Below are positions 1 through 20,390 of a stretch of DNA of 20,588 nucleotides, piece after piece. The notes beneath the pieces are model-generated. The model did no database searches. It worked only from the letters and a program-made list of their open reading frames with translations, and was not told the DNA's origin. The position numbers were made by a program, and so were the translations under genes. Within the stretch, counting starts at the first letter, position 1; each line of letters opens with the position of its first letter. Location of the stretch: positions 1 through 20,588 of the forward strand of contig CAYWJO010000054.1 in the NCBI GenBank assembly GCA_964458565.1. Reading direction: 5' to 3'. Origin of the DNA: an uncultured archaeon (GTDB lineage Archaea > Asgardarchaeota > Thorarchaeia > Thorarchaeales > Thorarchaeaceae).

Positions 1-180
1 ATGATGCGCAAAAGGGGCAAGTCCCTGTTACGCCATCCCGTCATCCGTCACCTTCGGCTCTGTCCGAGGACAGAAGCTGACTTCTACCTCTAAGAAGTAG
101 AATATCTTAGGAGGTGATTAATGGCTGATGACTCACTATCATCAACTTCCATCCGAGCTTTCACTACGGATACCTTGTTA
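1..180 (-). repeat. Array repeat copy 1 (long form: 16S 3' fragment + trailer; core cut by window edge)
   Basis: Positions 1-117 are near-identical to copy 4 (about 6072-6187). It extends furthest into 16S-like sequence: plus-strand GGATACCTTGTTA at 168-180. Confidence 0.95.
109..180 (-). rRNA. 16S rRNA 3'-terminal fragment (not a full gene) with 30-nt BHB intron at 118-147
   Basis: Minus strand reads TAACAAGGT-ATCCGTAGT-GAAA-GCT-CGGATGGA-[intron]-TCACCTCCT, matching the conserved h44/h45 junction, helix 45 and anti-SD. Confidence 0.85.
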
Positions 181-233
181 AAGAAAAAAATTGTAAGCAG
201 GTACAAGCTCACTTTATTTCAGAAGGTCAATAA

Positions 234-824
234 ATGAATAGAATGAATCCTAGGGTTGATGCATATTTAAGCAAAGCCACAGAGTGGCAGGAAGAATTTG
301 AGAGATTGAGAAGGATCATTCTTGACTGTGGGCTGACCGAAGAATGGAAGTGGGGTAAACCTTGCTACACGTTCAAGAAAAGCAACATAGTTTTGATACA
401 TGGATTCAAAGAATACTGTGCGCTTCTGTTTTTCAAAGGTGCCTTGTTAAATGATACCAAGGGTATTCTAGTAACACAGACGGAAAATGTGCAGGCGGCG
501 CGCCAGATTCGATTCACCAATGCTCGAGAAATAGTTGAGATGGAACCCAGCTTGAAGGCCTATATTTTTGAAGCCATTGAAGTGGAAAAAGCCGGTTTGA
601 AAGTAGATTTCAAAAAGACTACAGAATTCATAATTCCTGAAGAATTTCAAACTAAATTAGATGAAATCCCTGCCTTGAAAACTGCTTTTAATGCATTGAC
701 ACCAGGACGGCAAAGAGCATACATTCTTTATTTTTCTCAACCCAAGCAATCCAAAACCCGGGAGTCAAGGGTTGAAAAATGCATGCAGCAAATTCTCAAT
801 GGAAAGGGATTAAATGATCGGTAA
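234..824 (+). CDS. ydeI: YdeI family protein (DUF1801 + YdeI/OmpD-associated domain)
   Basis: Motifs KWGKPCY, LIHGFKEYCALLFFKGALL, QTENVQAARQIRFT and AFNALTPGRQRAY closely resemble Bacillus YdeI. Confidence 0.9.
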   Translation: MNRMNPRVDAYLSKATEWQEEFERLRRIILDCGLTEEWKWGKPCYTFKKSNIVLIHGFKEYCALLFFKGALLNDTKGILVTQTENVQAARQIRFTNAREIVEMEPSLKAYIFEAIEVEKAGLKVDFKKTTEFIIPEEFQTKLDEIPALKTAFNALTPGRQRAYILYFSQPKQSKTRESRVEKCMQQILNGKGLNDR

Positions 825-2584: not shown

Positions 2585-3101
2585 GTGAGAGGAATCTGAT
2601 GAGGTATTAGAGCCACCTGCAAACCGCGTACCTCTCTCTGCTAGGAAGACATTGTCAATGTTGATTGGGTGAGTATAGAGTTGTAAGTCTTGATGATCGT
2701 TGTTTGAAATTAGACGTGCAGCAAGCCATCTTACACTATGAGATGCTAAAGAGGTTGTGAGTTGAGAGGATAAGATACATCGTCCATTGGCCGGAGCCCT
2801 AATCTCACGAGATTTCGTAAAATTAATATGACTTAACACACATATATAGGCGAACAGAACTATCAGAAAATCCTCAAGATGCACATCGTTATGTAAATGC
2901 AATCAGTGAGAATCAAACCTATTGCGTAGGTGTCTTGTTCCCCTTGGTTTCTCAGGGACTGTGTGACCGTTCACGGAATGTGTTCATCTAGCTATGGTCA
3001 CACTTGAGAGCCAAGTCTTTGTGATAGACATTGGCACTATTCAGATTGTGTATTGCGGAAGCGCCACTTATGTCAAGTGACGCACAAGAAAGTGATACGG
3101 T

Positions 3102-5991: not shown

Positions 5992-6047
5992 ACAGATGAG
6001 AGATGGAATCAAACGATGCATCTGATATTGACTCGGAGAAGGAGTCA

Positions 6048-6244
6048 TGCAAAATGGAGAGGGCACTCAACACGATGCGCAAAGGGGCAAGTCCCTGTTA
6101 CTCCATCCCGTCATCCGTCACCTTCAGCTCTGTCCGAGGACAGAAGCTGACTTCTACCTCTAAGAAGTAGAATATCTTAGGAGGTGATTGATGGAAAGTG
6201 AGAATCACTCTCACAATCTTCCATCCGCAGCTTCCGCTACGGAT
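6048..6244 (-). repeat. Array repeat copy 4 (long form)
   Basis: Core variant GGGCACTCAACA at 6061-6072, then trailer hairpins, AGGAGGTGA at 6179-6187 and the helix-45 complement to 6244. Confidence 0.95.
6179..6244 (-). rRNA. 16S rRNA 3'-terminal fragment with 32-nt BHB intron at 6188-6219
   Basis: Minus strand ATCCGTAGC-GGAA-GCTGCGGATGGA-[32 nt]-TCACCTCCT. Confidence 0.85.
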
Positions 6245-8899: not shown

Positions 8900-8943
8900 G
8901 ATAGACTATGAAAAATATAGGGTGCTCAACATGATGCACAAAG
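8900..8943 (-). repeat. Array repeat copy 5 (very short form)
   Basis: GATAGACTATGAAAAATATAGGGTGCTCAACATGATGCACAAAG. Confidence 0.88.
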
Positions 8944-10141: not shown

Positions 10142-10200
10142 TATCACATTGGTTCCACAGTATTCACTTGCGAATATGTTCGTCACCGATAGGAATTGAC

Positions 10201-10346
10201 ATTGCAAAAGAAATAGGGTGCTCAACATGATGTGCAAGGGCAAGTCCCTGTTACTCCATCCCGTCATCCGTCACCTTCGGCTCTGTCCGAGGACAGAAGC
10301 TGACTTCTACCTCTAAGAAGTAGAAAAATCTTAGGAGGTGATTGAT
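10201..10346 (-). repeat. Array repeat copy 6 (trailer + anti-SD, truncated inside the intron)
   Basis: Core at 10216-10227 and AGGAGGTGA at 10333-10341. Similarity ends 5 nt into the intron. Confidence 0.95.
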
Positions 10347-11161: not shown

Positions 11162-11196
11162 AAAACTTCGAATGCAAAATAATGGGGAGTGTCAAT

Positions 11197-11276
11197 ACAA
11201 AAGAGATAGGGTGCTCATCGGGATCTACAGTGGGCAAGTCCTTGGTACCCCAACCCGTCATCCACCAACTTCATTC
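11197..11276 (-). repeat. Array repeat copy 7 (short, degenerate)
   Basis: CAAAAGAGATAGGGTGCTCA..GGGCAAGTCC..AACCCGTCATCCACCAACTTCA. Confidence 0.85.
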
Positions 11277-12103: not shown

Positions 12104-12203
12104 TGAACCCACTTCACACTCAATTGGATAGACTATGAATAAAATAGGGTCCTCAACATGATGTGCTAAGGGAAAGTCCCTTTACAATCCAACCCGTCAT
12201 CCA
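12104..12203 (-). repeat. Array repeat copy 8 (short form with extended flank)
   Basis: TGAACCCACTTCACACTCAATTGGATAGACTATGAATAAAATAGGGTCCTCAACATGATG..AACCCGTCATCC. Confidence 0.92.
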
Positions 12204-12224
12204 ATCCGATGATTGCATCCACAT

Positions 12225-13356: not shown

Positions 13357-13429
13357 GACTATGAATAAAATAGGGTCCTCAACATGGTGTGCTAAGGGAA
13401 AGTCCCTTTACAATCCAACCCGTCATCCG
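13357..13429 (-). repeat. Array repeat copy 9 (short form)
   Basis: Nearly identical to copy 8 over GACTATGAATAAAATAGGGTCCTCAACATG..CCCGTCATCC. Confidence 0.92.
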
Positions 13430-13472
13430 CTGGATTCTGTATAATTTGGTCTGATTCTAATGCATGAGGAAA

Positions 13473-14605: not shown

Positions 14606-14683
14606 TTGTAAAAGAGAGGGTGCTCAACATGGTGTACAAGGGCAAGTCCCTGTTACTCCAACCCGTCATCCACCCACTTCACT
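14606..14683 (-). repeat. Array repeat copy 10 (short form)
   Basis: TTGTAAAAGAGAGGGTGCTCAACATGGTG..GGGCAAGTCCCTGTTACTCCAACCCGTCATCCACCCACTTCAC. Confidence 0.92.
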
Positions 14684-17377: not shown

Positions 17378-17603
17378 GAACTATGGTCCACACTAACCTG
17401 GATAATATGAAAAAGATAGGGTGCTCAATATGATGTGCTAAGGGAAAAGCCCTTTTACAATCCAACCCGTCATCCGTCACCTTCGGCTCTGTCCGAGGAC
17501 AGAAGCTGACTTCTACTTCTAAGAAGTAGAAAATCTTAGGAGGTGATTGATGGAATGTGAGAATCACTCTCACCATCTCCCATCCGCAGCTTCCGATATG
17601 GAT
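17378..17603 (-). repeat. Array repeat copy 11 (long form, mosaic)
   Basis: Core GGGTGCTCAATA at 17419, first hairpin of the copy 8/9 type, remainder like copies 4/6. Confidence 0.95.
17538..17603 (-). rRNA. Degenerate 16S rRNA 3'-terminal fragment with 32-nt BHB intron at 17547-17578
   Basis: Minus strand ATCCATATC-GGAA-GCTGCGGATGGG-[32 nt]-TCACCTCCT, with substitutions that break helix 45 pairs. Confidence 0.8.
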
Positions 17604-19099: not shown

Positions 19100-19177
19100 A
19101 TTGCAAAATAGAAAGGGAGGCTCAACAAAGAACATGTACTGGGAAAGTTCCCTGGTTACCTGACCCCGTCATAAGCC
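19100..19177 (-). repeat. Array repeat copy 12 (short, divergent lineage)
   Basis: TTGCAAAATAGAAAGGGAGGCTCAACAA..GTACTGGGAAAGTTCCC..GACCCCGTC, shared with copy 13. Confidence 0.85.
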
Positions 19178-19324
19178 TTTTTCCTTTTTACCTCCAAGAC
19201 TCGTTCCCTGATATAGCTAATTGTTTATGATGGAATGAAAGCACTCTGCTCTATTTTTCTTTTTCAGTAATTCACCTTCCAGAATGATGAATGATCTGTA
19301 ATCGCTTGATGTTTCTTGATCTGT

Positions 19325-20092: not shown

Positions 20093-20183
20093 TGATCATT
20101 CCAACCTGATTAAATCACATGTTTATCTTGAAAGCGAACAAGAAAGAAGATAAATCTGACTTCTGCTTATCCAAGATTGACGT

Positions 20184-20390
20184 TTGTAAAATGAGAGGGT
20201 GGCTCAACAATATACAGGTACTGGGAAAGTTCCCCGAATACCCGACCCCGTCGAAGGCCCGTACTTCTCTCGCTGTTCCGAAGAACCGCAAGACAAGCTG
20301 CTCTACCTCTATGGTAGAAACATAGGAGGTGATTGATGGAAAGTGAGAGTGACTCTCACCATCTTCCATCCGCAGCTTCCGCTACGGATA
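20184..20390 (-). repeat. Array repeat copy 13 (long form, divergent trailer)
   Basis: Core GGGTGGCTCAACA at 20197, diverged but structurally equivalent hairpins, AGGAGGTGA at 20324-20332. Confidence 0.92.
20324..20390 (-). rRNA. 16S rRNA 3'-terminal fragment with 32-nt BHB intron at 20333-20364
   Basis: Minus strand TATCCGTAGC-GGAA-GCTGCGGATGGA-[32 nt]-TCACCTCCT. Confidence 0.85.

Follow-up and report, generated by a model that had tools for sequence, protein, structure and literature searches.

Probable relaxed bulge-helix-bulge mini-introns at the 3′ end of Thorarchaeota 16S rRNA, copied into a gene-cassette array

The DNA analysed here (the window) is a stretch of 20,588 nt that makes up the entire contig C54 of a 93-contig Thorarchaeota MAG. 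It holds four inserts of 30–32 nt which are probably copies of a protein-free, ~30-nt 16S rRNA mini-intron of the relaxed bulge-helix-bulge (BHB) form, denoted HBh′, situated here in the 16S-tail copies of a cassette array. In Thorarchaeota 16S genes the intron would separate helix 45 from the anti-Shine-Dalgarno tail, immediately after E. coli A1531. In pre-rRNA from a native gene, GAUG, the final four paired bases on the 3′ side of helix 45, would pair with CAUC of the intron, the three-nucleotide bulge GAA, cut after its GA, would lead straight into an intron stem of 8–10 bp, and the intron would end in CAUC-AA, the second cut falling before the U of the triplet AAU. A two-subunit splicing endonuclease is predicted to cut each triplet behind its second nucleotide, whereupon the ligase RtcB would join the exons to give GGAUGGA+UCACCUCCU. 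That the insert is a BHB-type 16S mini-intron had been proposed from a sequence-only reading of the window, and this proposal is now supported by native genes of related archaea, by covariation and by the cut rule. A small BHB rRNA intron is a known kind of element, and it is the site and the lineage that are new.

All four complete inserts were found on the plus strand where the sequence-only reading had placed them (Table 1), one of 30 nt and three of 32 nt, together with an additional, cut-off copy that is third in order along the contig. Each complete copy, read on the plus strand, runs from AGGAGGTGA through the 30–32 nt of the insert and into the reverse complement of helix 45. On the minus strand, accordingly, the 3′ strand of helix 45, ending GGAUGGA, is followed by the insert and then by UCACCUCCU, and these flanks are identical, in every letter, to the 16S end of same-family genomes. 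The motif AGGAGGTGA itself occurs five times in the window against 0.12 expected from shuffles, with none of 100 shuffles reaching five. Upstream of the insert, each copy keeps only 25–60 nt of 16S sequence, copy 1 being the one that reaches furthest into the 16S (to AACAAGG). Helix 45 is intact in copies 2 and 5 and altered in copy 1, which has a GAAA loop and a 1-nt deletion in the 3′ strand. Searches of the window with Rfam give no rRNA, with no full-length SSU rRNA around any insert copy, and ARAGORN gives no tRNA. The window copies are partial 16S tails and not parts of a working rRNA gene; most likely they are dispensable for ribosome function. The genome's own 16S rRNA gene is absent from the MAG assembly, and presumably carries the intron.

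Table 1. Positions of the 16S-tail copies, mini-introns and repeats of the window, and of related inserts in other genomes (locus handles given where positions lie outside the window)
Feature	Position	Strand	Remarks
16S trailer copy, copy 1	1–108	−	ends in conserved core GUUGAGCACCC and T-run; core starts on the C26 end
16S 3′ tail UCACCUCCU (anti-Shine-Dalgarno), copy 1	109–117	−	perfect Shine-Dalgarno when read on the + strand
Mini-intron copy 1, 30 nt	118–147	−	own stem GUUGAUGA/UCAUCAGC; exon-intron helix GAUG/CAUU
Helix 45 and upstream linker, copy 1	148–180	−	extends to AACAAGG; no 1500-site insert
Trailer and core, copy 2	6047–6178	−	
Mini-intron copy 2, 32 nt	6188–6219	−	
Helix 45, copy 2	6220–6244	−	same as native 16S of relatives
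Truncated copy, third in order (remnant)	10342–10346	−	last 5 nt of the intron beside the anti-Shine-Dalgarno; similarity stops at cassette junction
Mini-intron copy 4, 32 nt	17547–17578	−	exon base mutated (GGAUGGG); helix 45 5′ strand damaged
Mini-intron copy 5, 32 nt	20333–20364	−	
Further anti-Shine-Dalgarno tails UCACCUCCU	6179–6187, 10333–10341, 17538–17546, 20324–20332	−	
Helix 45 equivalents	17579–17603 (mutated), 20365–20389	−	
Other long-form trailers	10198–10332, 17404–17537, 20182–20323	−	
Short repeat, trailer core only	1893–1971	−	without 16S part
Other short repeats	2555–2586, 8902–8943, 11193–11272, 12132–12207, 13357–13437, 14606–14680, 19104–19183	−	
1500-site intron carriers	L007:2992–3021; also L009, L022, L028–L030, L034, L061, L065		
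1500-site intron carriers, continued	L077, L078, L086, L089, L095–L101		
31-nt insert at 1527/1528	L006:1463–1514	−	native 16S from another family of the same phylum

Inspection of full 16S genes of related archaea finds the insert at exactly this position. By pattern search, an insert between GGAUGGA and UCACCUCC is present in 23 of the 86 family genomes, a figure that includes the present genome by way of two of its array copies; the other 22 family genomes have the same insert at the same site, as do MAGs from numerous independent studies. At least 14 distinct native 16S genes, judged native by the presence of the 1400-region upstream, contain an insert of 30–33 nt at precisely the junction that follows A1531, and about 25 native genes of the family are without it. 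The 16S genes of relatives score 1200–1500 bits against the archaeal SSU model. A total of 44 distinct native 16S ends were gathered, a few of them from outgroups, and 41 could be scored both at this site (1531) and at a second intron site at E. coli position 1500 (see below). All four combinations of the two introns are seen (17, 10, 8 and 6 ends), the 1531 intron being patchy among genera. Outside Asgard archaea, a scan of all species genomes gave matches in Dehalococcoidia, Actinomycetota, Myxococcales and Woesearchaeota, which were rejected as duplicated tails or chance. The earlier proposal that attachment of the anti-Shine-Dalgarno depends on splicing would apply to the native genes of relatives, presumably also to the unassembled 16S of this genome, and not to the coordinates in the window from which it was drawn, where the copies are partial.

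The secondary structure proposed for the insert is present in the window as described: GAUG pairs with CAUC (CAUU in copy 1), the triplets GAA and AAU are left unpaired, and the intron has a stem. Copy 1 conforms to the same model of helix, three-nucleotide bulge and stem in spite of its different stem sequence, as had been noted from the window itself, and the wider alignment gives strong covariation. In an alignment of 41 distinct copies (A2), the model comprising GAUG/CAUC, the three-nucleotide bulge and a 10-bp stem pairs in 92.6% of cells, has changes on both sides in 11 of its 14 pairs, and reaches a covariation score of 0.257 against 0.118 when shuffled, a score that none of 500 shuffles attains. 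Restricting the alignment to the 14 native genes (A3) gives 94.4% of cells paired, both-side changes again in 11 of 14 pairs and a score of 0.468 against 0.157 (0/500 shuffles). Slid registers of the bulged model pair in only 30–56% of cells.

The exon-intron helix GAUG/CAUC pairs in every cell (100%), and it too covaries. The exon reads GCUG in L060 and in L043, the latter from a member of the Heimdallarchaeota, and the unrelated introns found there end in CAGC and CAGU. A further unrelated intron, in L010, occupies the same site with the stem GCCCACAAGG/CCUUGCGGGC. The 5′ bulge is GAA (GAU in L060 and L043) and is followed directly by the stem of 8–10 bp, all 10 pairs of which change on both sides. 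In every lineage, the four nucleotides that lie 2 nt upstream of the 5′ junction are able to pair with the four at the equivalent place before the 3′ junction; the rule also holds at the 1500 and 1527 sites. Such geometry is that of tRNA BHB introns. Cuts after nucleotide 2 of each bulge give GGAUGGAUCACCUCC, which is the sequence of the roughly 25 intron-less native genes of the family, bearing out the claim that this cut rule yields the canonical 16S end.

A convincing outer exon-exon helix closing the 3′ bulge, as in the strict hBHBh′ motif, is not found, the exon bases GCG and CAC being unpaired; the only possible closure of this bulge comes from an invariant AGGU/ACCU pairing or from stacking on the inner part of helix 45. 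With its 3′ triplet thus lacking a closing exon-exon helix, the motif appears to belong to the relaxed HBh′ class.

Two further sites show the same behaviour in relatives. Between helices 44 and 45, at E. coli position 1500, a 30-nt mini-intron splits GUCGUA from ACAAGG in many native Thorarchaeota 16S genes and is known in 19 sequence variants; its helix (GUCG/CGAY) and stem covary strongly, and its occurrence does not depend on that of the 1531 intron. At 1527/1528, five bases upstream of the 1531 site, a 31-nt insert with the helix UGCG/CGCA, the triplets GAA and AGU, and a stem of 6–10 bp occurs in a native 16S from a different family of the phylum. One and the same cut rule restores the canonical sequence at the 1500, 1527 and 1531 sites, even where the inserts are unrelated.

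A different interpretation is that the insert is an expansion hairpin which is kept in the mature 16S between helix 45 and the anti-Shine-Dalgarno and is never spliced. A continuous 9-bp helix with an inner stem, in which GAUGGAAGA pairs with UCUUCCAUC by way of GGAAGA/UCUUCC, can indeed be drawn for the majority of the family; in A2 it has 92% of cells paired, with both-side changes in 7 of 13 pairs and a score of 0.120 against 0.058 shuffled (0/500 shuffles). Patchy presence would fit an optional expansion as well. This fold was nevertheless rejected, in that it has half the covariation of the bulged model and fails in divergent introns: the pairs that it adds are almost without double changes, and they break in L010, L060, L043 and copy 1 of the window. 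Moreover, a retained hairpin has no need of a 4-bp exon match lying exactly 2 nt from each junction, yet unrelated inserts keep one. The sister intron at position 1500 is also difficult to reconcile with retention, since it lies in a universally conserved linker, adjoining the decoding site, where 30 additional nucleotides are hard to square with function. Retention is, on these grounds, unlikely.

Calculated folding energies bear on the same question. Minimum-free-energy folds of the isolated region prefer, in five of six sequences, the full helix 45 beside a separate intron hairpin, which is the arrangement expected of a retained hairpin; the GAUG/CAUC helix is absent from all six, and the invariant AGGU/ACCU pairing closes a three-way junction beside the full helix 45. 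As the exon-intron helix does not appear in these folds, energy alone neither backs nor excludes the motif. The sequence-only reading had held the BHB helix and helix 45 to be mutually exclusive, and a clash does exist; it is confined, however, to the outer 4 bp of helix 45, and it is the full helix 45 that prevails in the folds. Whether such a clash could act as a maturation checkpoint is a matter of speculation.

Splicing of a relaxed motif requires a suitable endonuclease. The genome encodes two EndA paralogues, one of them divergent, and the ligase RtcB. The reading frames of the two endonuclease subunits are L072:1474–2037 (minus strand) and L073:1177–1815 (plus strand). One paralogue matches, over its full length and with an E value of 1e-45, chains of the tRNA-splicing endonuclease structures 3p1z and 3ajv, which we take to be the catalytic subunit of the Aeropyrum pernix heterotetramer. 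Asgard archaea have an (αβ)2 endonuclease with a loop that gives broad specificity, and relaxed HBh′ motifs are cut only by the (αβ)2 and ε2 types (PMC5829648). The host, as judged from its gene content, thus appears equipped both with an endonuclease for relaxed motifs, its broad specificity being that described in PMC5829648, and with a ligase.

Public RNA data were searched with the native 16S of a relative (L007). Among the 23 RNA runs listed, metatranscriptomes of salt-lake and wetland studies share up to 0.47 of the words of this 16S. Contigs from four runs over L007:2300–3300 are short; none spans 3054–3086 or 2992–3021, and coverage does not pass 3081. That spliced RNA is not seen in these contigs, which do not span the site, would fit a retained hairpin but speaks neither for splicing nor against it; a co-occurring relative without the intron would in any event mimic spliced RNA.

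It is also conceivable that the motif is cut and the exons are not rejoined, such that the mature 16S ends at GGAUGGA without an anti-Shine-Dalgarno. Bacterial intervening sequences behave in this manner, being cut out with the pieces left unjoined. The 3′ exon contributes only about 11–12 nt of mature rRNA, and ligation is putative. On the other hand RtcB is encoded, archaeal endonuclease cleavage is well established as leading normally to ligation, and the tail UCACCUCCU is invariant in 41 of 41 aligned copies and in 14 of 14 native genes, which argues that the tail is used. Cutting without joining is accordingly a little less probable again than retention of the hairpin.

The proposed spliced intron has several counterparts among known elements. 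BHB introns of less than 50 nt that form hairpins occur in the 16S of Thermoproteales, Desulfurococcales and Aigarchaeota (Jay & Inskeep 2015, PMC4496867), and the introns described here are like them in being protein-free, hairpin-forming, shorter than 50 nt, patchy in distribution and placed at conserved 16S positions where they disrupt universal primer sites. The sites listed in PMC4496867 end at 1391, whereas here the site is 1531/1532, with 1500 and 1527 in relatives; the Thorarchaeota sites fall within the last 45 nt of the 16S gene, and the lineage is Asgard, unlike the hosts in that study. The window copies differ further in sitting outside any rRNA gene. In the literature, no description was found of an intron that parts helix 45 from the anti-Shine-Dalgarno, nor of one in Thorarchaeota rRNA.

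The relaxed HBh′ introns of tRNA (PMC5829648) are alike in their 4-bp helix, one good three-nucleotide bulge, intron helix and poorly closed second site, and alike in requiring a broad-specificity endonuclease, which Asgard archaea have. They are unlike in that the host RNA here is 16S and the central helix makes use of the 3′ strand of helix 45, such that it competes with 4 bp of a mature rRNA helix. The BHB motifs in the processing stems of archaeal pre-16S and pre-23S rRNA share the enzyme and the precursor, and their cut ends are likewise ligated; these motifs flank and release a whole rRNA, whereas the Thorarchaeota intron is internal and its excision would remove ~30 nt.

The setting of the copies in the window requires separate consideration. 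Direct repeats, 13–14 in number and all in a single orientation, occupy C54 and the final 80 nt of contig C26, the end of which (L001:19770–19854) overlaps the start of the window. On the plus strand every repeat shares the core GGGTGCTCAAC ... CCCGTCATCC; five repeats run on to AGGAGGTGA, and four of these five continue through the insert into helix 45. Short and long repeats together bound gene cassettes. The modules between them are small, unrelated and on either strand, and include genes for DUF1801, a methyltransferase, a nucleotidyl/phosphatidyl-transferase set, FmdE, TauE, BNR and beta-propeller proteins, a GNAT protein, an ArsR regulator and several PIN-type toxin–antitoxin pairs. On C26 the array is flanked, at its far end, by a gene for acetyl-CoA synthetase; in the other direction it runs past the right end of the window. 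A search with nhmmer using the repeat core gave no significant match outside C54 and the C26 end, with weak sub-threshold matches elsewhere.

The origin of the repeats is indicated by their minus strand, which matches the native 16S ends and trailers of same-family genomes, the homology to native 16S being recognisable through the ~190-nt trailer as far as GUUGAGCACCC and its T-run. Moreover, in G002, in G037 and in a Zodletone MAG (L065), trailer copies and truncated 16S ends are found 1–6 kb downstream of the native 16S and on the same strand, arrays beginning immediately behind the native gene in all three (on contig C2 of G002 and contig C18 of G037). This homology and the arrays behind native 16S genes in relatives together indicate that the window is part of a gene-cassette array whose repeats derive from the 16S tail. 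A mobile element inserted directly after the 16S gene has been described in Heimdallarchaeum (PMC8813620).

In form, the array is similar to the tandem accretion of integrative elements at the 3′ ends of tRNA and tmRNA genes and to integron arrays, in which directly repeated, partial copies of the 3′ end of an RNA gene part the modules, and in which the modules are unrelated accessory genes with many toxin–antitoxin pairs. It is unlike them in that the anchor is a 16S tail and an integron integrase is lacking. Indeed, the profile TIGR02249 finds no integron integrase in the genome, no recombinase lies next to the array, and the tyrosine recombinases that were found sit on other contigs. An integron reading of the repeats was rejected on the integrase result and because the repeats, being homologous to the 16S trailer, are not attC hairpins.

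The tails within the array are not uniform. The trailer of copy 5 is nearest to one native lineage (86% to L022), and those of copy 2, copy 4 and the truncated third copy stand at ~76%, ~77% and ~79% to their nearest natives. This differing likeness, together with the separate intron stem of copy 1, suggests that the array holds tails from several sources, comprising at least two to three intron and trailer lineages, captured or displaced. As a side observation, many of the tail copies in other loci (L011, L015, L020, L038 and L039) start no more than 2 nt from the 5′ base of helix 45, with a half-conserved motif, ~AGGACTGTGCAA, ahead of them. The 16S-side boundary of tail copies may therefore be non-random.

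Such an arrangement raises the prospect, tentative and on balance doubtful, that the mini-intron passes as DNA from one Thorarchaeota 16S gene to another, carried by 16S-tail cassettes. Each cassette would bring with it the 3′ end of a donor 16S, with or without an intron, and recombination or gene conversion between the cassette tail and the resident gene would then install the intron or erase it. Two genomes have the corresponding combination of a native 16S without the 1531 intron and an intron-bearing tail copy 3–6 kb downstream: G042 (C81, positions 68412 and 74221) and G054 (C205, positions 137706 and 134895). The trailer of the G042 tail copy is 90% like the native trailer of another genome, its own native not being among the two closest. 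The window, for its part, contains at least two intron lineages and at least two trailer lineages. The intron-less natives beside intron-bearing tails and the foreign-like trailer in G042 suggest that cassettes may move intron-bearing tails between genomes. If so, this would be a route of mobility for BHB introns that does without a homing endonuclease, and the particular value of the window is that, with intron-bearing 16S tails seemingly travelling on mobile cassettes, it makes such a route testable.

The element in the window might instead act on the plus strand, AGGAGGTGA serving as a Shine-Dalgarno and the ATG within the insert as a translation start or the start of a leader peptide for the cassette genes, with the likeness to 16S being secondary. 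In all four complete copies the Shine-Dalgarno is followed by an ATG at a distance of 3 nt, and in copy 1 the end of a frame of 38 codons (121–237) overlaps, through ATGA, the start of the DUF1801 gene at 234. The ATG is, however, an automatic outcome of the intron CAUC, and the same sequence occurs in the rRNA sense within native 16S genes; the small frames are of unequal length and lie in different reading frames, since an indel shifts copy 1, and copies 2, 4 and 5 have no coupled gene downstream on the plus strand. A leader peptide was rejected, the frames not being conserved, and the plus-strand reading as a whole is very improbable. Irrespective of it, the ATG at 121 and the ATGA overlap (window positions 109–237) could mean translational coupling at copy 1, with nothing similar at the other copies. 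That the likeness is due to chance or to misassembly, for which nothing speaks beyond the source being a MAG, can be given practically no credence in view of the recurrence of the insert at the same site in 22 other family genomes and in MAGs of numerous independent studies, and of motif counts far above those of shuffles.

For the ribosome, splicing of the mini-intron would mean that Thorarchaeota need a tRNA-type splicing reaction to attach the last 11–12 nt of their 16S, including the anti-Shine-Dalgarno on which mRNA docks. Many species would need a second such step beside the linker of the decoding site, which amounts to an extra step in the maturation of Asgard ribosomes. In practical terms, the inserts interrupt the sites of primers 1492R and 1525R, and surveys and 16S callers can therefore miss or truncate these genes. 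Larger insertions occur in the family as well: a same-family 16S gene (L008, G009:C2:589938–592348) spans 2411 nt against the 1478 positions of the model, and must therefore have ~900 nt extra, in the form of one or more large introns.
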